NCBI GenBank assembly: GCA_964521165.1 | Contig: CAZFRA010000004.1 | Coordinates: 1-60,678 of the forward strand | Source of the DNA: an uncultured Lachnospiraceae bacterium | GTDB taxonomy: Bacteria > Bacillota > Clostridia > Christensenellales > UBA1242 | Length of the DNA: 60,678 nucleotides | Reading direction: 5' to 3' | Part shown: positions 2,668-60,678 of the stretch, in pieces | Layout of the letters: every line of letters begins with the position of its first letter | Position numbering within the stretch: position 1 is the first letter of the stretch | The notes under the pieces: model-generated | Seen by the model: only the letters and a program-made list of their open reading frames with translations | Databases searched by the model: none | Told to the model about the DNA's origin: nothing | Made by a program: the position numbers and the translations under genes

Positions 2668-3189
2668 ATGAAAGAAAATTTTTGGACGAAAACTTTGCTC
2701 GGAATTTATTCTTATTTGGAAACAATTGCGGATGCTATCGACAAAATAACAATGAAAACAGCGCTCAGTTCTTTCCAATTTTCAAGGTTAAGTTTAGAGA
2801 AAAATAATGTTTTAACAATTTCCAACAAACTGATTAATTTATCCGAAAGAAAAGTGACTTTGATAAATCTCAAACTTTTGATTGAAAAAACGCTTTTATC
2901 TTTACCAAAAAAAGATGCAATTTTGCTTATTCATCGATACATTAATAAAAGTAAAGCGACAGAAATTTCTCAAAAAAGTGGAATGAGTGTTCACTCGGTT
3001 TTTCGAAAGTTACACGCTGTGGAAGATAAGTTTGTTTTTGCTTTGTCAAAACAGGGATACGACAATTTGAAGCTTAAAGATATGCTCAAAAACGAGCACT
3101 GGATTTTGAATTATTATAACGACCTTGCTACAAAAAAAGCGGAAAACTTTTCTTTTTCGGGTGGTGTGGAGAAACTTGTTGCGTTATAA
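2668..3189 (+). CDS. Small helix-turn-helix protein (sigma-70 region 4-like). Candidate phage-type late regulator or small terminase subunit.
   Basis: LPKKDAILLIHRYINKSKATEISQKSGMSVHSVFRKLHAVEDKF resembles a region-4 HTH. ATG at 2668 has the SD aaaggag 7 nt upstream. Confidence 0.45.
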   Translation: MKENFWTKTLLGIYSYLETIADAIDKITMKTALSSFQFSRLSLEKNNVLTISNKLINLSERKVTLINLKLLIEKTLLSLPKKDAILLIHRYINKSKATEISQKSGMSVHSVFRKLHAVEDKFVFALSKQGYDNLKLKDMLKNEHWILNYYNDLATKKAENFSFSGGVEKLVAL

Positions 3190-3951
3190 GTCTTTTTCAT
3201 CAAATTCAAAATAATCGCCATACTGAATTTTTCGTATACCTTTTTTCTCCACCTTTTGCTTTTTCGTTTTTGAAGGTTTGATAAGAAAAAACAAAATAAA
3301 TGCACTTGGAACAGCAATGGCAATAATCAACAAAATCTTTGTGCCGGTGGAAAGAGCGGCAAACTCTTCACCATTAGTGGTGGCTGTGAACACTTCTTCG
3401 CTTATTTCAGTAAAGCTTTCAGTGTTTATGATGATTGTTGGTTCTTTGTTTACCACACCAGAATAGATATATCCTTGATAAGTCACTCCATTAATAACTG
3501 TGCTACAAAAATACCACGTGCTAACATTTTCTTTCATCATTTCTCCGTCAATTGCACCATAATAATTTAGCGTTTGATTTTCTTCAAAAGTCACAACAAC
3601 ATTAGACGAAACAGTTGGTTGTTCATATAGTTCATAACTTGTGTAATTGACAAAAGTGGTATTGAAATATGGAGTGCTTGGTGTTCCAGACATTAAGGTC
3701 ACATCACTCTTCAAAACATAACCTTCAATATCTTTATAAACCGCTTGATAAAACACATCATTTTCCACGCCTAAAATTTGCACAAAATATGAGTATGGTA
3801 AGATAAAAAGCTGAGAGGATGTGTCTGCGTTTTGGTAAAAATACGCGCTCTGTGTTTTCACCTTGCCAAAATATGCGCTTTCCGCATAGGCGATATTCGG
3901 AAAACTTGCAAAAAAGAGAAATAAAGCCAAAAAAATATATATTTTTTTCAT
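3184..3951 (-). CDS. Secreted, C-terminally membrane-anchored protein with an SH3b-like domain
   Basis: Signal peptide MKKIYIFLALFLFFASFPNIAYA; SH3b-like segment (YFYQNAD...IEGYVLKSDV); C-terminal TM helix followed by a Lys-rich tail. Confidence 0.6.
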   Translation of the reverse strand: MKKIYIFLALFLFFASFPNIAYAESAYFGKVKTQSAYFYQNADTSSQLFILPYSYFVQILGVENDVFYQAVYKDIEGYVLKSDVTLMSGTPSTPYFNTTFVNYTSYELYEQPTVSSNVVVTFEENQTLNYYGAIDGEMMKENVSTWYFCSTVINGVTYQGYIYSGVVNKEPTIIINTESFTEISEEVFTATTNGEEFAALSTGTKILLIIAIAVPSAFILFFLIKPSKTKKQKVEKKGIRKIQYGDYFEFDEKDL

Positions 3952-4047
3952 ATTCTCATTTTAATTCTTTTCATATTTTTTCTAAAGAAGAATTTTGTCA
4001 AAAAAATTGTTTATTTATATCATTTTGTATTTTATGGAGAATTTTTT

Positions 4048-5466
4048 ATGAAGGAAATTATTGAAAACATAAAAAAAATTGATTTAGAACTTGAAAAACG
4101 CAAGAATTTTTCTGTTTTTTTATATAATCAAGGAGAAATTGTCCACAAAAAACAACTTGCATTTCATAAATGTACAAAGCGTAATCGCTGGGTTTTTGGT
4201 GGAAATCGTTCGGGCAAAACGGAATGCGGAGCGGTGGAAGTGGTCTATCTCGCACTCGGAATACATCCATACAAAAAGAACAAACTGACGGAAGGATGGG
4301 TGGTTTCTCTTTCAAGACAGGTACAAAGAGATGTTGCGCAAAAGAAAATCTTGCAATACCTTCCAAAACATTACATTGAAAAAATTGTTATGCTTTCCGG
4401 CAATCAAGGAAGTTTTGAAAGTGGAGTTATTGATTTTATCGTTGTTAAAAGTGAAGTTGGTGGGTTAAGTCGAATTGGGTTTCGCACTTGCGATCAAGGT
4501 CGAGAAAAATTTCAAGGGGCGAGTCTTGATTATGTTTGGTTTGACGAAGAACCACCCTTCGACATTTATCAAGAGTGTCGAATGCGCGTTTTAGACAAAA
4601 GTGGAGAAATTTTTGGCACGATGACACCGCTCAAAGGTTTAACTTGGGTCTATTATCAAATCTATCTCAATGAAAACAACGATGAAGAAGTTTGGTATGA
4701 ACAAATGGAGTGGGCAGACAATCCATATCTTCCGCAAAAGGAAGTGGAAAATATGACGAAAAATATGTCGAGTGAAGAGATTGATACTCGGCGATACGGA
4801 AAATTCCGCTCAACAAGCGGGTTGGTTTATCCAGAATTTGACGAAAATGTCAATGTCATCGAGCCATTTGATGTGCCGAAAGAGTGGCAGGATATGATTT
4901 CTATTGACCCGGGACTTCATAATCCACTTTCTGCGCATTTTTATTGCGTTGATTTTGACGGTAATGTCTATGTGGTTGCCGAGCATTATGAAGCCGAAAA
5001 AGATGTCACATATCACGCCACAAAAATCAAAGAAATTGCTGAAAAATTGGATTGGAAGAAAAATAGTGGTGGCAAATTGACGGCACTTATTGACCCTGCT
5101 GCCAATCAGAAAACGCTTTCAAGCGCCAAAACAGTGGTGGAACTTTTTAACGAAAATGATATTGTTGTTAACACAAAAGTCAACAAAGATATGTTTTCTG
5201 GAATTGCCACCGTCAAGGCGTATCTTAAAAATGCCGAAAATCGAAGTCGACTTTTCATCTTCAAAAATTGTGTTAATCTCATAAGGGAGATTAAGTCGTA
5301 TTGGTGGGGCGACGGCGACAATCCTATCAAAAAAGACGACCACGCACTTGACGAACTTCGCTACTACCTTATGACCAAACCAAAAAACACCTTTCACACA
5401 AAAAAGACGACCCTACAAAAAGAGAAAGAAAGGTTGGCAAAAAGATTAAAATTACGAAATACTTGA
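4048..5466 (+). CDS. Phage terminase large subunit-like ATPase/nuclease (orphan)
   Basis: Walker A GGNRSGKTE, Walker B LDYVWFDEEPP, RNase H-like nuclease motifs MISIDPG and KKDDHALDELRYY. 472 aa. Confidence 0.8.
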   Translation: MKEIIENIKKIDLELEKRKNFSVFLYNQGEIVHKKQLAFHKCTKRNRWVFGGNRSGKTECGAVEVVYLALGIHPYKKNKLTEGWVVSLSRQVQRDVAQKKILQYLPKHYIEKIVMLSGNQGSFESGVIDFIVVKSEVGGLSRIGFRTCDQGREKFQGASLDYVWFDEEPPFDIYQECRMRVLDKSGEIFGTMTPLKGLTWVYYQIYLNENNDEEVWYEQMEWADNPYLPQKEVENMTKNMSSEEIDTRRYGKFRSTSGLVYPEFDENVNVIEPFDVPKEWQDMISIDPGLHNPLSAHFYCVDFDGNVYVVAEHYEAEKDVTYHATKIKEIAEKLDWKKNSGGKLTALIDPAANQKTLSSAKTVVELFNENDIVVNTKVNKDMFSGIATVKAYLKNAENRSRLFIFKNCVNLIREIKSYWWGDGDNPIKKDDHALDELRYYLMTKPKNTFHTKKTTLQKEKERLAKRLKLRNT

Positions 5467-5603
5467 AAGATAAATAAAAATAATAAAAAATGTAGAAAAA
5501 AATGAAAAAAATAAAAAATTATTAAAATAATTCATAAATATTTTGCAAATATGTTTGGAAAAATATTATAAATTATGATAAATTAAATTATGGAGAGATA
5601 AAT

Positions 5604-7958
5604 ATGAAAAAATCTTTCTCATTATTAAGTTTAATTCTCGTTTTTCCGCTTTTTATTTGTGGAATGTTTTTTATTTTGAATTTTTCTTACACACCGTCCT
5701 TTGCTTCGGCGGATACACAAACTGTTGAGATAGGCACTGCAGAGGAATTTGTAGATTTTGTAAATAATTACGACGCTAGCAGTCAAAATACCAACATTGT
5801 TTTAACTTCAAATATCAACCTTCAAGGGCAAACTTTGACAAGCACAATTGGAACATCGGACTATGCTTTCCAAGGCACTTTCAACGGTCAAGGCTATTCC
5901 ATTTCTAACATCACTTTTGAAATTCAAAATCAAAGCGGTAATTTATATGTAGGCATTTTTGGTAAAACTTCTGGTGCGACGATAAAGAATTTACAAATTT
6001 CTGGAAGTTATAATATCAGCATTAACGAATCGACATATTCGTATATCGGCTTGCTTGTCGGAAATGCCGATAACAACACCACAATTGACAAATGTCTTGT
6101 CACTGCCACGCTCTCTTCGATAAACTTTCTTGATAGTAACACCTTCAAAAATGTCTTTATAGGTGGAATTGTTGGTGATATGCAAGGCAATTCTTCAATA
6201 ACAAATTCCATTTCTCGTGCACAACTTACAAATGGAATTGAGTTTGGCAGCAATAATTATTCCTATATTTCAGCCATCGGTGCTGTTGTGGGATATTTGG
6301 ATGCATCCTCTCTTCTTTTCACGATAAGTCAAGCATCAATCACAGTGGCTGTGAGTGATACTTATTCTGGCAGTGTCTATGTCGGCGGAATTGCAGGCTA
6401 CATCGTACAATCCAGTTCGCGAATTATTAACGCAGTAACAGAAACCACATTAAATGTTGACACAAACGCTACTGTGGGAATTGTTGGTGGATATATTTCG
6501 AATAACTCACCAGAAGAAGGCAATCTTTCTTCAATAATCTATTATTACACATCTTCATATCAAACTTTTGGTCAAAATAAAAGTGGTAGTTCATATGAAA
6601 TTTACTCCGTATCTTCTACCATCCAGAATTATTCCAGTGTGGAAGAATATTTCACTGACAAACAAAACTTGTGGAATGCAGTAGTGGGCGACAAGTGGGA
6701 TTTTTCAAATATTTGGACAACACTCAATTCTAACATAAATTTGCAACCATTTATCGGAGACTTTACTTTTTCGGTGCAGTTTACAAGTTTGAACATAGGT
6801 ACAAGTCAGTTAGGTGTTTTGGATGTGGTATATGATTTTGAGTCGGGTTATCGTTATGATAACACAGCAAGTTTTACATTTAAGTTTAGCACCTCAAACG
6901 AATATGTGAAGAACTATTATCAACTTTCCAATCTCAATCTTGGAAACACGGTGGTTGGCACTTTTATATATAATGAAGCTGACGATTCATATTCTTTATT
7001 GACAGCATCGGGCTATGATAGAATTTCTTTAACGAAAAACACTTCTGACGATACATATACCGTCACAATTTCCGGCGTGACGGATAACTATGACGGTACT
7101 TATTCCATAACCATTTCAGCGGTGCAATTCACTGGTGTTTTCACTTATCGACTTTATGATGATGGGAATATAGTGGGAGAAGATGAAAAAAGTGAAGCTT
7201 TTGTTTATATCACAGACAGTCAAAATACTAGGACGCGTGAAGTTTCGATAAGTTATTTCACATACAACTATGAAACATCGGTCACAACTCAACAAATTTC
7301 CACTTCGCTTTATGCTTTCACAGGTTGGTATCTTGTTGTTGAAGATGGCGAAGATATTGAAATTACCACATTAAGAACACTGGAAATAACTTTCGGTGAA
7401 GGCTATTTCATTGATGATTTTGAAGTATATGCGCGATACGATTCTGACGCGTGCAATCTTATTTTCAGTATTGACGACGGCGTGCAGATGATTATTCTTG
7501 GAAGCGAACAATATTATGTGGAAGAAACAAATGTTACCATTCCAATCTTCAAACAACTCACTCAACTTCGTATGAGTGTTTATATCAAAGAAAATTATAT
7601 TTTTGATGTCAATGAATTTATGGATCTTTTGAACACATACAAAATAGACCAGTCGGCGACTGATTTTTGTTCGCTCGTTTCGGAAACTGTCACGGAAGAT
7701 GGGTTGACAGTTTATGAATTTAGTTTGAATATGACAAACTTGGATTCTCAATTTAGTGATGTTTTCACAATAACCTTCACAACAACATATGACAACAGCG
7801 ATAACAACACGCTTATTTGGATTATTGTTGGCTCAATTGCCGGCGCTCTTCTTCTTGCTGGTCTTATCGTTTTGATTATCTTTTTGGTTAGACGCCGTGG
7901 CAGTGGTGGCGGTGGCGGAAAAATTCGCACATCTTTCAAAAAAGGAATGTATTACTGA
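5604..7958 (+). CDS. Large cell-surface protein with GLUG-type repeats, an N-terminal signal peptide and a C-terminal TM anchor
   Basis: Signal peptide ending FASA|D. Repeated G-x-(I/V)GG(I/L)(V/A)G motifs (YVGIFGKTSG, IGLLVGNADN, IGGIVGDMQG, VGGIAGYIVQ, VGIVGGYISN). C-terminal TM helix followed by RRRGSGGGGGK. Confidence 0.7.
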   Translation: MKKSFSLLSLILVFPLFICGMFFILNFSYTPSFASADTQTVEIGTAEEFVDFVNNYDASSQNTNIVLTSNINLQGQTLTSTIGTSDYAFQGTFNGQGYSISNITFEIQNQSGNLYVGIFGKTSGATIKNLQISGSYNISINESTYSYIGLLVGNADNNTTIDKCLVTATLSSINFLDSNTFKNVFIGGIVGDMQGNSSITNSISRAQLTNGIEFGSNNYSYISAIGAVVGYLDASSLLFTISQASITVAVSDTYSGSVYVGGIAGYIVQSSSRIINAVTETTLNVDTNATVGIVGGYISNNSPEEGNLSSIIYYYTSSYQTFGQNKSGSSYEIYSVSSTIQNYSSVEEYFTDKQNLWNAVVGDKWDFSNIWTTLNSNINLQPFIGDFTFSVQFTSLNIGTSQLGVLDVVYDFESGYRYDNTASFTFKFSTSNEYVKNYYQLSNLNLGNTVVGTFIYNEADDSYSLLTASGYDRISLTKNTSDDTYTVTISGVTDNYDGTYSITISAVQFTGVFTYRLYDDGNIVGEDEKSEAFVYITDSQNTRTREVSISYFTYNYETSVTTQQISTSLYAFTGWYLVVEDGEDIEITTLRTLEITFGEGYFIDDFEVYARYDSDACNLIFSIDDGVQMIILGSEQYYVEETNVTIPIFKQLTQLRMSVYIKENYIFDVNEFMDLLNTYKIDQSATDFCSLVSETVTEDGLTVYEFSLNMTNLDSQFSDVFTITFTTTYDNSDNNTLIWIIVGSIAGALLLAGLIVLIIFLVRRRGSGGGGGKIRTSFKKGMYY

Positions 7959-15319: not shown

Positions 15320-15446
15320 TGCAAAGTAAAAAATCTTCCAAAGACAGCAAGTGCTTTTGCGTAAACGACTTTGTCGTGCTTGCCTAGGAAAAGAACATAG
15401 GTTGAATTTTTCTCTGTGGCCTTTTCCGTGCTTACAGAGATTTTTT
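15320..15446 (+). promoter_or_regulatory. Ribosomal protein L10 leader (autoregulatory 5' UTR) with a terminator-like hairpin
   Basis: Structured, GC-richer leader immediately upstream of rplJ. Hairpin tctctgt...acagaga (15411-15440) followed by a T6 run. Confidence 0.55.
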
Positions 15447-15486
15447 ATATAGAAACACAAAATTTATTTAAAAGGGGGTATAGAAA

Positions 15487-40879: not shown

Positions 40880-41112
40880 AATGTAAAAACGATGATGAAA
40901 GACCAGTAGGCGCGCAAAATTTTCTTTCAGAGAGCCTTGTTGCTGGAAAAAGGCAGAAAATCCGCGTTGAATTCACTTTCTAGTTGCACTCTGAAGATTT
41001 TTTTGTGTAGGAGTTGCCGCGATGCAGGCGTAAAATGCAGAAATAAGGTGCTTTTTGCACGAAATTAGGTGGTAACACGGCAATGTCGTCCTAATATTAG
41101 GGCGACTTTTTT
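40880..41112 (+). promoter_or_regulatory. T-box leader, phenylalanine specifier
   Basis: Specifier gttgaaTTCActttc, with UUC at 40972-40974. T-box sequence aggtggtaacacgg (41067-41080). Terminator gtcgtcct/agggcgac followed by a T6 run. Confidence 0.9.
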
Positions 41113-49890: not shown

Positions 49891-50158
49891 ACCGAGAGAA
49901 TGCTTCGAGATGACAAGACTGACTGTTTCGATGATGTATGAACTCCACCAAAGCAACCTTATGGCACATCAATAACACTCCTTAATGATGCTTCCGTCAG
50001 GACCTGACATGGTTCGAAGGTATCAATTGCATAAGACCTTGATTTCATCGCCCAGCCACCACGCACATTTTCAACCCTATCACCCCTAAGCAAGCGTTCA
50101 ATCCTGCTATAGCGGATTGCAGGTTACAGGGCACCGCTAACTCCCCATCTATCTCGGT
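49891..50158 (-). ncRNA. ffs: Signal recognition particle RNA, long Bacillus type with an Alu domain
   Basis: The reverse complement contains GGGGAGTTAGCGGTGCCCTGTAACCTGCAATCCGCTATAGCAGG (5' Alu-domain region, as in B. subtilis scRNA) and domain IV CCATGTCAGGTCCTGACGGAAGCA. The termini accgaga/tctcggt pair. Confidence 0.88.
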
Positions 50159-55147: not shown

Positions 55148-55519
55148 ATGGCAGTTAAGAACGAAGATAACAGAAATAAAGGTAAAATAACGCTGGACAG
55201 GAAGATTCTTGTTTCTATCATAAATTTAGCCGCGAAGGAAATCAATGGTGTGGAAAGTGTTTGTAACAAACATAGACCGTGGTATAAGAAAATGGTGAAG
55301 AAATATGATGACGGCGTGGAAATCAAGTTTGAACAAAATGGTGCGCTCACTGTGGATGTGTATATAAACATATATATCGGTTTCAACGTGCCTGATATTG
55401 CTTATCGCGTGCAAGAAAATATTCGCAATTCACTTGCCACAATGGTAGCACTCAAACCGCTTAAAATCAATGTTCATATTTTGGATGTTGAATGCGATAA
55501 AGAGGTGGCGGATGCGTAG
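55148..55519 (+). CDS. Asp23/Gls24-family (alkaline shock) protein, YqhY-like
   Basis: ITLDRKILVSIINLAAKEINGV; sits before nusB as in Bacillus. Confidence 0.85.
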   Translation: MAVKNEDNRNKGKITLDRKILVSIINLAAKEINGVESVCNKHRPWYKKMVKKYDDGVEIKFEQNGALTVDVYINIYIGFNVPDIAYRVQENIRNSLATMVALKPLKINVHILDVECDKEVADA

Positions 55520-55892
55520 AGAAGCACGAGAAGGTGCCTTCAAACTTATTTTTGAAACTCTTTTTAAGGATGCGGAAGAAGAAACTTTGATTGAAGTGAC
55601 CAGTCCTTTAAAAAAGGAAGCGGACAAGGCTTTTTGCAAAGAAATTTTCGATAAATATTTGAGTCATAAAGAAGAACTTGACGAAGTTATCAAGAAAAAT
55701 TTGACTAATTTTGATTTTGACAGAGTTTATCGCATTGATTTGGCGCTTGTTTATTTGGCACTTGCAGAAATAAAATATCTTGACACTCCAAAACCGGTTG
55801 CTATCGATGAAGTTTTGGAAATTGCAAAAAAATATTCCACTTTTAATAGCAGTAAATTCATAAATGGACTACTTTCGGCAATAATTGAGTAA
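55512..55892 (+). CDS. nusB: Transcription antitermination factor NusB
   Basis: MRREAREGAFKLIFE...; the ATG overlaps the end of the asp23 gene by 8 nt. Confidence 0.9.
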   Translation: MRREAREGAFKLIFETLFKDAEEETLIEVTSPLKKEADKAFCKEIFDKYLSHKEELDEVIKKNLTNFDFDRVYRIDLALVYLALAEIKYLDTPKPVAIDEVLEIAKKYSTFNSSKFINGLLSAIIE

Positions 55893-55898
55893 AGGCGA

Positions 55899-57077
55899 AT
55901 GATAACAACAATAAGCGTAACCAAATTTAATAGTATTGTTAGAGATATATTTAACAACGAAGAACTTCTTCACAGCGTTAATGTTGTTGGAGAAGTTTTT
56001 GGCGTTTCAAGAGCAAAAACAGCAATATATTTTTCGATTAAGGATGAAGAAAGTTCTCTTCCGTGCGTGTGTTTTAACCTTTCGGCGTTTGAAGGTGTGA
56101 AAGAAGGTGATTTGGTCACTCTCTATGGCGGTCCGAATTTTTACACCAAAACTGGACGATTTAACTATGTCGCACATCGAATTGAACCAGCAGGACAAGG
56201 ACTTTTGTATCAACGCTTTGTTGAACTTAAGAATAAACTTGAGAAAGAAGGACTTTTCGACACAGCAGTCAAAAAAGAGTTGCCAAAATCGATAAAAAGA
56301 ATCGGTGTTGTTACTTCCAAAGAAGGCGCGGTAATTCAGGATATAAAAAATGTGGCGTGGCGCAGAGACCCGTCGGTTGAAATTGTGTTATATAACACCA
56401 AAGTGCAAGGGAATGGTGCAGAAAGAGAGATTTGTGCCGGCATCGACTTCTTTTCGAATTACGACAAAGTGGATGTTGTGATTGTGGCGCGTGGTGGCGG
56501 CTCAATGGAAGATTTGTCGGCGTATAATACCGAAATGGTGGCACGGGCGACATATAATTGCCAAAAACCAATTATCTCTGCTGTTGGTCACGAAACCGAC
56601 TTCACGATTATCGATTTTGTCAGTGATTTACGCGCGCCCACACCGAGCGCTGCAGCAGAGTTGGTCACGCAAGACATTTTCAAAGAGAAAGGTGTTTTCA
56701 AAATGCTTATAAGAAAACTTTCTCGCGAGTTGATGCTAAAAATTAGCGATAAAACGGAAGGATTTCAAGGCACAATCGCATACTTAATCACCAAAATGGA
56801 AGATTTTATCAGCGAAAGGGAGTTTAAACTTAAAGAAAATACCGAAAGACTCTCACTTCAAATCGAAAAATTACTGGACAACGAAAAACATAAACTAGAA
56901 CTTAAAGAAAACATTTTGAAACGAATTGACCCGCGAGAAATTTTAAAACGCGGCTATGCAAAAATCGAGCAAAATGGAAAAAATATTGATAAAGCGGAAG
57001 AAGTTGTTTTAAATGAGAAACTGACAATCAACTTCATTGATGGAAAAATTATTGCAAAAAGCGAGGAAAGAATATGA
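55899..57077 (+). CDS. xseA: Exodeoxyribonuclease VII large subunit
   Basis: N-terminal OB fold (VGEVFGVS) and catalytic region IIVARGGGSMEDL, ISAVGHETDFTI. Confidence 0.93.
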   Translation: MITTISVTKFNSIVRDIFNNEELLHSVNVVGEVFGVSRAKTAIYFSIKDEESSLPCVCFNLSAFEGVKEGDLVTLYGGPNFYTKTGRFNYVAHRIEPAGQGLLYQRFVELKNKLEKEGLFDTAVKKELPKSIKRIGVVTSKEGAVIQDIKNVAWRRDPSVEIVLYNTKVQGNGAEREICAGIDFFSNYDKVDVVIVARGGGSMEDLSAYNTEMVARATYNCQKPIISAVGHETDFTIIDFVSDLRAPTPSAAAELVTQDIFKEKGVFKMLIRKLSRELMLKISDKTEGFQGTIAYLITKMEDFISEREFKLKENTERLSLQIEKLLDNEKHKLELKENILKRIDPREILKRGYAKIEQNGKNIDKAEEVVLNEKLTINFIDGKIIAKSEERI

Positions 57078-57277
57078 ACTATGAAGATTCGATAAAGGAA
57101 TTGGAAGAAATTACAAACAAATTGGAAAATGAGAAGTTGTCGCTTAGCGAAAGCGAAAAATTGTTTGACAGGGCAATTATTCTTGCTGAGTTTTGTCAAA
57201 AAGAACTTTCAAAAACTTCCAAAAAATTGTTTGAAATAAAGAAAGAATTTGATAAAATTGTCGAGGAGGAAGTATGA
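57074..57277 (+). CDS. xseB: Exodeoxyribonuclease VII small subunit
   Basis: 67 aa, SIKELEEITNKLENEKLSLSES. ATGA overlaps at both ends. Confidence 0.9.
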   Translation: MNYEDSIKELEEITNKLENEKLSLSESEKLFDRAIILAEFCQKELSKTSKKLFEIKKEFDKIVEEEV

Positions 57278-58995
57278 AATTAAGTAAACTTGTCGGCGAG
57301 CGACTTAAGGATGTTCCAAACAGCGCCACGCTCAAAAGCCACATATATTTACTTCGCGCGGGATACATAAAGCAAGTAAGTTCCGGTATATTTTCATTAT
57401 TACCACCAGCACAACGAGTTAGCAAAAAAATTCAGGCGATAATTCGTGAAGAAATGGACAAATTAGGCGGGCAAGAAGTGCTTTTTCCAGTGGTAATGCC
57501 ACGCGAACTTTGGGATATGAGTGGCAGATATTCTTCCACTAAAGAAGAACTTTTGCGTTTTAAAGACAGAACAGGGCACGATATGCTTTTGGGAATGACG
57601 CACGAAGAAGCCGCCGTTCATATGGCGATGAACACGGTTAAATCTCACGAGCAGTTACCATTTATGATTTATCAAATCCAAACCAAATATCGTGATGAAG
57701 CGCGTCCGCGCGGTGGACTTATTCGCGTGAAGGAATTCACAATGAAAGATGCCTATTCTTTCCACGCATCACAAGAAGATTTAGATAAATATTATGGAAA
57801 AATTTATGATGCCTACAATCGAATTTATAAGCGTGTTGGGTTGAAGAATTTTATTTCCGTGCGCAGTGACAGTGGAATTATGGGTGGTGATATTGCCGAT
57901 GAGTTTATGCTTGTCACCGAAGTGGGCGAAGATAAGCTTGTTTTGTGCGAAAAGTGCGGATACAAAGCAAATATGGAAGTGGCGGAAAGTGTTCGAACAA
58001 AAGTGACATATGAGAAAAAAGATACTAAAGAAGTTTTCACAGGCAATGCACAGACAATTGATGAAGTTTGTCACTATCTTGAAACGGACAATGCTCACAC
58101 AGCGAAGGCAGTTTGTTACGAAACGGAAGACGGAAGATTGGTTGTGGCATTTCTTCGCGGAGATTATGATATCAATGAGAAAAAACTTGCCAAACTTTGT
58201 AAAAGTGAAATCAAAATTGCCGACACCGAAAAATTTGGTTTGGTGGCAGGAAATATTGGTTGCATAAATCTTAAATTACCGGAAAATGCGCTTGTGTTCT
58301 ATGATTTGTCTTTGCAGGGTTTGGAAAATTTTGTCACCGGCGCCAACAAGAAAGATTATCACATCATCAATGCCAGCGCATCACGCGACTTGCAAAATGT
58401 GGAATATAAAGATATCGCGCTTGTCAAGGACGGCGACACTTGCATTCATTGTGGCGAACGTCTTAAACTTACGCGTGGCATTGAAATCGGCAACATTTTC
58501 CAACTTGGAACGAAATACACTAAAACAATGGGGATGAAAGTTAGTATGCCAGACGAAACCACTCTTGAGCCAATAATGGGTTGCTACGGCATCGGTGTCG
58601 GCCGCACAATTGCCAGCGTGATTGAAGAAAAGGCGGACGAGAAGGGGATAATTTGGCCGATGACGATTGCACCTTGGCATATTCATTTCTGTCCACTTCG
58701 CCTTGACGACGAAAATGTGAAGGCGATTTCGAATGAACTATATAAGAAAATGCTCGACGCGGGACTTGAAGTTTTGTTTGACGACCGACAAATCTCGGCA
58801 GGCATCAAACTCACCGATAGCGAACTTATGGGTATACCAATTCGCGTTGTTGTCAGCCCGAAAACGATAGCCAACGGCACAGTGGAGATAACAATACGAG
58901 AGAATGGAGAAACTTATTATGTTTCCTTTGTTAATCTTATCCACGAACTCACCGAACTCGTCAAAGACGGCATTGAAGAAATTGAAGAAGAATAA
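57274..58995 (+). CDS. proS: Proline-tRNA ligase (bacterial type with editing insertion)
   Basis: Class II motifs (YQIQTKYRDEARPRGGLIRVKEFTMKDAYSF, GCYGIGVGR). Confidence 0.95.
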   Translation: MKLSKLVGERLKDVPNSATLKSHIYLLRAGYIKQVSSGIFSLLPPAQRVSKKIQAIIREEMDKLGGQEVLFPVVMPRELWDMSGRYSSTKEELLRFKDRTGHDMLLGMTHEEAAVHMAMNTVKSHEQLPFMIYQIQTKYRDEARPRGGLIRVKEFTMKDAYSFHASQEDLDKYYGKIYDAYNRIYKRVGLKNFISVRSDSGIMGGDIADEFMLVTEVGEDKLVLCEKCGYKANMEVAESVRTKVTYEKKDTKEVFTGNAQTIDEVCHYLETDNAHTAKAVCYETEDGRLVVAFLRGDYDINEKKLAKLCKSEIKIADTEKFGLVAGNIGCINLKLPENALVFYDLSLQGLENFVTGANKKDYHIINASASRDLQNVEYKDIALVKDGDTCIHCGERLKLTRGIEIGNIFQLGTKYTKTMGMKVSMPDETTLEPIMGCYGIGVGRTIASVIEEKADEKGIIWPMTIAPWHIHFCPLRLDDENVKAISNELYKKMLDAGLEVLFDDRQISAGIKLTDSELMGIPIRVVVSPKTIANGTVEITIRENGETYYVSFVNLIHELTELVKDGIEEIEEE

Positions 58996-59020
58996 GACTG
59001 CGTCTTTGCAGTCTTTTTTT
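58994..59020 (+). terminator. Intrinsic terminator after proS
   Basis: Stem aagactgc/gcagtctt followed by a T run. Confidence 0.85.
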
Positions 59021-59147
59021 GCAGTTTTTAATAATTTACATTAAATTTTATACTTATTAAATTTGTTTATAAACTAAGGAAAGTTAAAAATATTTAATAT
59101 TTTTTTGAAAAATATAGTAAATTTACTTGGAAAAGTAGAAAAATTGT

Positions 59148-59156
59148 TGTTATAAT
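59148..59156 (+). promoter_or_regulatory. Extended -10 element upstream of the lipoprotein gene
   Basis: TGtTATAAT ends 6 nt before the GTG at 59163. No clear -35 element. Confidence 0.4.
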
Positions 59157-59162
59157 AATTAC

Positions 59163-60678
59163 GTGAAAAAGTTTTTAATGTACTTTTTTATACTTCTTTG
59201 CTCGATAACCACCACGATCGGCGGTGGTTTGTTACTTGCCGGCTGTGATTCAACATACACCCAAACAAGCGGGGGGGGGGAATTCGACGACTTCGGAAAC
59301 CGAAAGTGGCGAAGATTTAGAAAATTCTAACGAAAATAGTGATGATGAAAATTTAAACAATGATGAAATTTCTGCCCAAGCTGTTAGTTTTACAGTTCAG
59401 GTAATTGCACTTACTCCGTGGAGCTCGTCCTCTACTAGTTATTATTCTTACAGTGCACTTAATAATACATATAGTTTGTATGTTGGTCGTTTTTATATTT
59501 ATTGGCTTGAGGGTGATGGCGGTTCTGGTCATGGCAGTGTGCAGACATGGGGGAATACTCCGACCACAGTGGCGGCGTATGGATATTCTGTTTCAGGAGG
59601 CTCTAGTAGTAATTATTATGCTGAAAATTTAGTGTATATTTCATATTCATATGGTTGGAGTGTTCAAAGGTATGCTAGGATTTCTAAAAGTGCTGCAGGT
59701 GATTATGTTTGTTGGAGTATTAACACCAGTACTACATTTGAAGATTCACGACAGACGACTGGCACATCGTTTTATACATACATCTATGGAGAAGGAATAA
59801 CTTCGACATCCTCACCATCAAGCTCGGTTGGTACCACATTTTCGGGAAATTGGTATATAAAATATCGTGCATCTCTTAGTATGAGTTATGATTCGGATGG
59901 TGGCAGCACCACCCCGAGTTCTCAGACTTTTTATGCAGGGCAAAGTTTAACATTAGCGAGTGCACCGACACGAACGGGTTACAGTTTTAATGGTTGGCTA
60001 GTCACAAACGGTTCACGAACAATTGGCACATATAGTGCAGGAACTAGCATAGCTTGGAGTGATTTAAGGTGGCCAAGCAGTAGTAATGGAAGTTATACCT
60101 ACACTGCCACTGCACAGTGGACACCTTCCTCATACACAAATTATTACTACTATCGCAATTCAAGCGGAACGGCAACATACGGCACAGCGAGTAGAACATA
60201 TGCTTCAAGTTTCACGATGTCGACATCGTCCACTTATTCTTACTACACTTCAAATGGTTGGAGTTTGGATGGTTGGGCTTACAACAGCTCAACTTCCACA
60301 TCGCGCACTTATTCAGCGGATGAAGAAGTTTCTAACTACAATTCAACCACTGGTAGTCTTTCGTTTTATGCAATTGCCCGGCGAACGATACAAATAATTT
60401 ACAACGCCAACGCGGGTAATGATACAGTTTCCGGTCTGCCCGAAACGCAGTCAGAGCAATATTGGAATATGTATGGCGATGTGTATGATATTCAAAGTTT
60501 AGAGATAAGTTCAAACACGCCAACACGGTCGGGCTACACTTTTCAAGGTTGGTCGACAGATAGTTCGGCAACCACGGCGGATCCAAATTATACAGGTGGT
60601 ACCGTTTTGAATTTCACTTACAGCAGTTCGGAAAGTGTCACGCTCTATGCTGTTTGGATACAAAATACGGTATATTAC
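59163..60678 (+). pseudogene. Surface lipoprotein with Listeria-Bacteroides (InlB B-type) repeats, interrupted by a frameshift at a G10 tract. It continues past the window edge.
   Basis: The first frame encodes a signal peptide with lipobox LLAGC, then stops at 59328-59330. The +1 frame is open from 59281 to 60678 (466 codons, checked codon by codon). It encodes an acidic linker plus repeats such as APTRTGYSFNGW and TPTRSGYTFQGW...TLYAVW. Confidence 0.8.
59271..59280 (+). repeat. Homopolymeric G10 tract at the frameshift point
   Basis: Ten consecutive G, counted directly; flanked by agc and aat. Confidence 0.95.

Follow-up and report, generated by a model that had tools for sequence, protein, structure and literature searches.

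Homopolymer switches at the 5' end of coding sequences have been described in several bacteria. The 5' poly(A) tract of Listeria monocytogenes inlA occurs as an A7 (ON), an A6 (OFF) and a stabilised A2GA4 allele (Orsi et al. 2010, PMC2831843). In Mycoplasma hominis, the 5' poly-A of the adhesin lipoprotein gene vaa is ON at A8 and OFF at A7 or A9 (Zhang & Wise 1997, as related in PMC524362), and an A8/A9 poly(A) switch in Bacillus subtilis swrA is known from its citation in PMC2831843. Poly-G/C contingency loci are found in Campylobacter jejuni, Neisseria and Haemophilus (PMC8355987, PMC5084427, PMC11868660), and a poly-C tract lies in the nanH3 sialidase gene of Gardnerella (bioRxiv 10.1101/2020.09.16.300947); poly(G)/poly(C) tracts are not over-represented in most prokaryotes (Orsi et al., PMC2831843). 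Here we analyzed a 60,678-nt stretch of contig CAZFRA010000004.1 from an uncultured Lachnospiraceae bacterium (the window), in which ten consecutive G residues separate the signal-peptide frame of a predicted surface lipoprotein gene from the frame of its body. We consider it probable, at roughly 0.75, that this locus is a genuine hypermutable poly-G switch, that is, a homopolymeric-tract contingency locus, caught in its OFF state.

The slipped-strand mechanism of such a switch is already classical, and it is the lineage that is new. Like inlA, the locus encodes a Firmicute surface protein of the internalin world, its Flg_new repeat being the InlB B-repeat. The homopolymer is likewise at the extreme 5' coding end, the OFF state is a tiny truncated peptide, and the family displays the same three natural allele classes, namely pure in-frame, pure out-of-frame and interrupted or 'locked'. 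Unlike inlA, where poly-A occupies codons 2-4, the tract is poly-G and follows the signal peptide, the protein is a predicted lipoprotein and not an LPXTG protein, and the organism is an uncultured anaerobic spore-former. According to the source that relates it, vaa is also a surface lipoprotein and adhesin gene with a modular, mosaic repeat body, turned ON and OFF by frameshift at a 5' coding homopolymer, and cassettes pass between its paralogues or alleles; the 5' and 3' modules common to the family members P0028, P0098 and P0082 hint at similar exchange here. However, vaa is a poly-A gene of a Mollicute whose switching at 1e-3 to 1e-4 is reported there as experimentally shown, whereas switching here is deduced from assembly differences. 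As cited, swrA shares with our locus an endospore-forming Firmicute host and a 5' coding homopolymer, reversibly ON or OFF at ~1e-4 to 1e-5, but it is a poly-A gene for a cytoplasmic swarming regulator, whereas the window gene is a poly-G gene for a surface protein. The nanH3 tract is, similarly, a coding G/C homopolymer of a Gram-positive mucosal commensal or opportunist that sets an extracellular or cell-wall protein to full-length or truncated, though its host is an actinobacterium, its product an enzyme of known activity, and its length heterogeneity was shown by cloning and sequencing within cultures. With the Campylobacter, Neisseria and Haemophilus loci, the locus shares G/C runs of 8-11 nt in genes for surface structures and surface-modifying enzymes and several independent switches per genome, the related species described below having two (lipoprotein and acyltransferase). 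Those hosts are Gram-negative mucosal pathogens with tens of loci, some without mismatch repair; here, one tract is present in 60 kb for the window and two in ~21 kb for the related species. A preliminary description of this locus had noted that poly-G tracts just after a signal peptide, a classic device in other bacteria, are not known to be characteristic of sporulating Firmicutes. Poly-G in Clostridia is indeed unusual, but with swrA, inlA and vaa homopolymer switches are already on record for spore-forming Firmicutes and their relatives. The literature searched contained no account of lipoproteins switched by poly-G in Clostridia, which is not proof of absence. Every Clostridioides example that a term search retrieved from one review is an invertible-promoter switch, and a passage of that review asks whether multi-locus simple sequence repeat (SSR) phase variation is truly restricted to pathogens or reflects database bias (PMC11868660).

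The locus has the following features, all on the forward strand.

58994..59015, + strand: intrinsic terminator of the upstream proS (9-bp stem, 4-nt loop, T-rich tail)
59127..59156, + strand: sigma-70-type promoter, TTGGAA, 18-nt spacer and TG-extended TATAAT (10 of 12 matches, TG present)
59148-59156, + strand: TG-extended -10 box TGTTATAAT
59163..59246, + strand: GTG start, lipoprotein signal peptide MKKFLMYFFILLCSITTTIGGGLLLAG and lipobox Cys
59163..59330, + strand: OFF-state frame of 55 residues (signal peptide plus 27 residues), ending at TAA 59328-59330
59271..59280, + strand: G10 homopolymeric tract, the proposed slipped-strand switch, 108 nt into the open reading frame (ORF) and eight codons past the lipobox Cys
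59281..59370, + strand: acidic Asn/Ser/Glu/Asp linker NSTTSETESGEDLENSNENSDDENLNNDEIS, start of the body frame
59371..59889, + strand: N-terminal 173-residue beta-sandwich domain, belonging to no Pfam family
59890..60678, + strand: Flg_new (Listeria-Bacteroides or InlB B-type) repeat region, running off the window end

The proS gene (573 residues; tRNA-synt_2b and HGTP_anticodon) ends at 58995, and its terminator marks the lipoprotein gene as a transcription unit of its own. The Cys codon, TGT at 59244-59246, is in frame with GTG 59163, and a second candidate start, ATG, lies at 59178. The signal peptide read directly from the window ends in LLLAG before the Cys, in accordance with the lipobox pattern [LVI][ASTVI][GAS]C, and is kept in homologues as LLLSGC, LLLSAC or LLAGC. 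As assembled, its frame continues GGG GGG GGG GAA TTC and runs into the TAA, while the +1 frame meets no stop in the 466 codons that lead from 59281 to the last base, 60678; upstream, this body frame extends only to 59209, with no ATG ahead of the tract. When G10 was changed to G9 in silico, a single continuous frame of at least 505 codons resulted, with the junction ...TSGGGNSTT.... Thus G9 or G12 is ON and G10, as assembled, is OFF, and one G more or less flips the locus between the 55-residue product and the frame of at least 505 codons. The tract is an uninterrupted G10 within a coding region, and so exceeds the length of about 8 nt from which G or C runs are considered hypermutable. Because the body frame is still open over 466 codons in an AT-rich genome, its inactivation is recent or reversible.

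The protein evidence for a single gene comes from homologues. The alignment with P0001, the best database relative (801 residues, 45% identity), spans the G9-fused protein completely (100%), from the signal peptide through the junction, which reads ...LLLSGCDSVQTESGGGNSQDD... in P0001 and ...LLLAGCDSTYTQTSGGGNSTT... in the window, with SGGGNS in both. This homology validates, at the level of protein comparison, a model in which the signal-peptide and body frames are fused into one gene for a putative large surface-anchored lipoprotein. In P0002 and P0028, too, the signal peptide and Cys are followed after 8-10 residues by GGG and then by an acidic linker, and equivalent acidic linkers are present in P0001, P0002, P0028 and P0097-P0107. 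The body matches Pfam PF09479 (Flg_new) in two stretches at 47 bits against a cut-off of 27 (E 2.9e-12), as P0001 and P0002 also do, and a PDB sequence search with the body gave no match. Full-length homologues are large Flg_new proteins of 800-1330 residues with the same signal peptide, acidic linker and a conserved C-terminal domain; that of the window protein probably lies beyond the window end. At the nucleotide level, blastn (1e-10) found no similarity between the window and the related loci, and the window gene is related to them at the protein and cassette level only. The positions that the preliminary description had given for the -10 element, both start codons, the Cys codon, the tract and the TAA all check out, and so do its open body frame without an upstream ATG, the fusion by G9 and the InlB B-type repeats.

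That description had offered both GTG 59163 and ATG 59178 as starts. Because homologues begin MKKFL or MKRFL (MKKFL/MKRFL...LLLSGC), the real start is the GTG (MKKFLMYFF...) and not the ATG, and the relative L016 likewise starts with GTG. In all six aligned family loci (the window, L001, L002, L007, L009 and L011), a constant gap of 6 nt separates TATAAT, or TATCAT in L009, from the start codon. The -35 TTG is also kept, and no purine-rich Shine-Dalgarno site precedes the start in the window or the five others. With so short a gap and no Shine-Dalgarno site, these alignments suggest a leaderless mRNA, conserved across the gene family. If so, the window and L016 have GTG as a leaderless start.

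The tract stands out from the composition of its surroundings. G10 is the sole G or C run of at least 7 in the 60.7-kb window (G+C 35.8%), the next longest being one C6. About 0.005 G runs of at least 10 are expected from zero-order and first-order composition alike, in keeping with the earlier judgement that such a run is improbable by chance, and dinucleotide-preserving shuffles gave a mean of 0.19 G8 matches against three overlapping ones observed. Within the long ORFs of the window, GGG is the rarest Gly codon (10.5% of Gly codons) and is absent from the six other peptides with three or more consecutive Gly; three consecutive GGG codons are therefore unlike a default Gly3 linker.

Length variation of the equivalent tract was found in a related uncultured Clostridia species (30% G+C), whose P0028 90%-identity cluster comprises 13 proteins of 518/529 and 477 residues. 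DNA was obtained for nine loci from nine different samples, and the tract comparison covers seven of these (L007, L010 and L014-L018), as consensus assemblies compared between samples. The lipoprotein tract is G9 followed by AA, and in frame, in four of the seven (L007, L010, L016 and L017). In L018 it is G10 followed by A, a neighbouring A>G change (GGGD) preserving the frame, while L014 (G9 followed by A, on the A>G allele) and L015 (G8 followed by AA) are out of frame, each with a 55-residue product. A second G tract lies 3.1 kb upstream in an Acyl_transf_3 gene (Pfam, 75 bits), at the following positions.

L007 6908-6916: G tract of the Acyl_transf_3 gene
L010 2908-2916: G tract of the Acyl_transf_3 gene
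L014 2786-2794: G tract of the Acyl_transf_3 gene
L015 2785-2794: G tract of the Acyl_transf_3 gene

This tract is G9 in L007, L010, L014, L016 and L017 (341 residues), G10 in L015 (277 residues) and G11 in L018 (289 residues), the L018 contig having a coverage of 127x. The gene is a candidate for a phase-variable surface-modifying membrane enzyme. The two tracts vary independently, the lipoprotein and acyltransferase states being ON/ON in four loci and OFF/ON, OFF/OFF and ON/OFF in one each. Aligned with MAFFT over 13.3 kb, the seven long loci show 408 polymorphic columns and 13 insertion/deletion (indel) events. Of these indels, only those at the two G tracts break a coding frame; the remainder are intergenic, except for one in-frame 9-nt indel. 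L014 and L018 differ by 17 single-nucleotide polymorphisms (SNPs) in 13.4 kb and L015 and L017 by 15 in 8.9 kb, a divergence of 0.13-0.17%, and both tracts differ within each pair. Because such near-identical strains differ at both tracts, the tracts change much faster than point substitutions arise, and the pattern is the population signature of hypermutable contingency loci. The preliminary description had proposed phase variation and a comparison of tract lengths in related genomes; lengths do vary between assemblies, with G8, G9 and G10 in a homologous tract in and out of frame, which supports the phase-variation reading.

In more distant relatives, the tract position is occupied in several ways. 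The flanks are homologous, reading ACAAGC-G10-AATTCG in the window, ACAAAC-G9-AATTTG in L007 and GAAAGC-GGGGGAGGG-AATTCG in L001. The Gly3 site of L001, which encodes P0001, is thus interrupted (GGGGGAGGG), as is that of the five assemblies encoding P0002 (L002-L006, GGGAGGGGGA); L009 has GAGGGTGGT and L011 has AGTGGAGAT, whereas L007 and L010, which encode P0028, have the pure in-frame G9. The interrupted versions in the more distant homologues (GGGGGAGGG, GGGAGGGGGA and the GEG proteins) are locked forms of the tract. Among family representatives, GGG is found at the tract position in P0103, GGGG in P0107 and GEG in P0101, while P0097-P0100 and P0106 have no such Gly motif. Judging from these alignments, the tract seems to have been gained, locked and lost repeatedly across the family. 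P0103, available as protein sequence only, reads ...PGGGFDDSENED..., in which FDD is what the window OFF frame encodes after the tract (GGGEFDD) and SEN resembles SET of the window body frame; an old frameshift at the tract, later fixed by a second, compensating indel, may have left this trace. Separately from the tract, an in-frame TGA at L002 11291-11293, and likewise in L003, L019 and L020, ends the P0002 orthologue at 430 residues (...GTSSN*VEIKNIG...), past which the frame runs on into the next called gene (843 residues, Flg_new and a weak GLUG match). The intact form of this split gene is P0098 (1333 residues), with Arg at the TGA position; the nonsense allele is thus kept in at least four independent assemblies.

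Based on these comparisons, a hypermutable poly-G tract eight codons past the lipidated Cys would gate expression of the window gene. Slipped-strand mispairing during replication would add or remove one G. At G9 (or G12), the signal peptide would be in frame with the body and the lipoprotein made and exported; at G10, translation would stop after 55 residues and no body would be produced. The assembled sequence would then represent the OFF phase, and a 1-nt deletion would restore ON cells in the population. We infer that most copies in the sample do carry G10. The window's own tract presumably switches reversibly at high frequency, and the selective agent may be something that recognises the cell surface, such as phage, host antibody or an adhesion trade-off.

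Several points weigh against this switch. The polymorphic gene is of a paralogous type from another species, sharing with the window gene the 5' cassette and C-terminal region and not the N-terminal domain, and its polymorphism was read from consensus assemblies, some of low coverage (~7.5x for L014, 15x for L015). Part of the ON/OFF signal in protein databases is a gene-calling artefact, and only L014, L015 and L012/L013 are truly out of frame at the DNA level. For the window's strain, the sole other copy is a Logan contig found by exact ProS look-up (L008, SRR7039258, 3.7 kb), 100% identical over 55516-59193, which ends 78 nt upstream of the tract. The 55-residue OFF product had no record in an exact-product look-up, and JGI metagenomes gave no match by family alignment or by an exact flank pattern with variable tract. 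A scan of genome contigs with the signal-peptide pattern returned at least three family loci among the matches listed, none from the window's species.

The 477- and 406-residue database forms were considered as OFF variants and rejected, since the DNA of L016, L017, L019 and L020 has intact 5' ends and the short forms reflect start-codon choices of gene callers. L012 and L013 carry an interrupted GGGGAGGGG tract, and T6 instead of T7 in the signal-peptide region breaks their frame after 12 codons. Both contigs have ~5.6x coverage and begin at the promoter; they are weak evidence, as they may represent chimeric assembly or recombination between paralogous lipoprotein genes. In L012 1-1591 and L013 1-1565, the P0028-type gene and promoter are followed by genes of the other paralogous locus (NMT1, LeuRS, DHFR and S8 peptidase, as in L002). 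P0028 and P0098 also have a near-identical C-terminal stretch of ~190 residues.

A homopolymer miscall, the most probable of the rival explanations, is still unlikely: the true tract would be G9, the gene an ordinary intact lipoprotein gene, and the extra G a product of sequencing or assembly. Several platforms are prone to errors in G runs of 9-10, only one assembly of the window's strain covers the tract, and G9 would give exactly the SGGGNS junction of P0001. However, the window assembly shows no general homopolymer or indel problem, because 46 A/T runs of at least 7, four of them 8 nt long, sit within intact long ORFs. Its 45 intact ORFs of at least 150 residues cover 81% of the window, and the 20 ORFs scanned against Pfam, among them FtsH, PFOR, RNase J, GreA, GerA/GerAC and L10, look complete, as do the upstream proS and xseA/xseB. 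The several tract lengths in the related species, including one at 127x, are moreover the sole frame-breaking indels in 13 kb, and the relatives' data reduce the likelihood of a miscall in the window's strain. An uninterrupted G9 of the rarest Gly codon would still be hypermutable, so that a miscall alters the phase of the locus and not its nature.

We find it harder still to credit a fixed pseudogene, in which a one-off +1 frameshift left a dispensable surface-protein gene to decay. Other inactivations do occur in the family, such as the conserved TGA that splits the P0002 orthologue and the T6 for T7 in the signal peptide of L012/L013. The 466-codon body frame of the window gene, however, has no second lesion, its one lesion falls exactly in a tract kept pure G against codon bias, and the equivalent tract toggles between near-identical strains. 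Decoding through G10, by transcriptional slippage or programmed ribosomal frameshifting with low-level expression from the G10 allele, is very improbable: the run is 10 nt long and bacterial RNA polymerase is known to slip on long homopolymers, but to our knowledge documented bacterial slippage is on A/T runs and rG:dC hybrids resist it, no stimulatory Shine-Dalgarno or RNA structure is evident beside the run, and the in-frame G9 alleles of relatives form a pattern of DNA-level switching and not a conserved recoding site. An invertible promoter was also considered and set aside, as only weak, AT-rich, imperfect inverted repeats were found, none convincing; one of them (59029-59045 / 59174-59190, 17 nt, 82%) surrounds the promoter and start codon and is judged to be chance, since its second arm falls within the sequence that encodes the signal peptide.

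The N-terminal domain of the body (59371-59889) is rare, with only 12 representatives at E<=1e-3 among 1.84 billion proteins. An AlphaFold2 model built from this small alignment (predicted local distance difference test score 91.5, predicted template-modelling score 0.88) confidently gives a mostly beta-strand beta-sandwich. Foldseek against the PDB found it weakly similar to Gram-positive pilin and adhesin domains (best E 3e-3, template-modelling score ~0.4); as similarities of E 3e-3 or weaker are too slight, we do not assign the domain to the pilin type. The protein is plausibly a surface-exposed lipoprotein that acts as an adhesin or as a phage or antibody target.

GerA/GerAC germination proteins, PFOR and FtsH are among the products of the rest of the window, whose gene and RNA content fits an anaerobic, spore-forming Clostridia lineage. 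Its RNA features, identified with Rfam and ordinary for a Firmicute, and the genes around a lone terminase ORF are as follows.

1-47, + strand: 5'-truncated tRNA at the window start
3187-3951, - strand: SH3_3 protein flanking the terminase ORF
4048-5463: lone Terminase_6N large-terminase ORF
5604-7955: 784-residue ORF with no Pfam match, flanking the terminase ORF
15320-15456, + strand: L10 leader
40883-41096, + strand: T-box leader
49892-50157, - strand: large Bacillus-type signal recognition particle RNA

The region 3187-7955 is a possible prophage remnant adjoining the gerA operon.

SSR phase variation is documented mainly in mucosal pathogens and Mollicutes, and the known switches of Clostridia are invertible promoters. 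The window locus and the tracts of the related species indicate poly-G contingency loci in uncultured commensal spore-formers, on surface lipoproteins and an acyltransferase. Annotation pipelines miss such genes: the body ORF was left uncalled here and is called from an internal TTG in relatives, and strain-resolved metagenomics would misread them as pseudogenes. Candidate roles of the switched protein are those of a phage receptor, an antigen or an adhesin. More tentatively, and with considerable doubt, this lineage of uncultured spore-forming gut Clostridia could possess a small poly-G 'phasome'. In it, a family of mosaic Flg_new surface lipoproteins would have in common a portable 5' cassette, made up of the promoter, the leaderless start, the signal peptide and a G9-type tract, which paralogues would exchange by recombination, with separate poly-G tracts in surface-modifying enzymes such as the product of the Acyl_transf_3 gene. 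If this is true, commensal Clostridia would use contingency loci in the style of Campylobacter or Mycoplasma besides the invertons of C. difficile.

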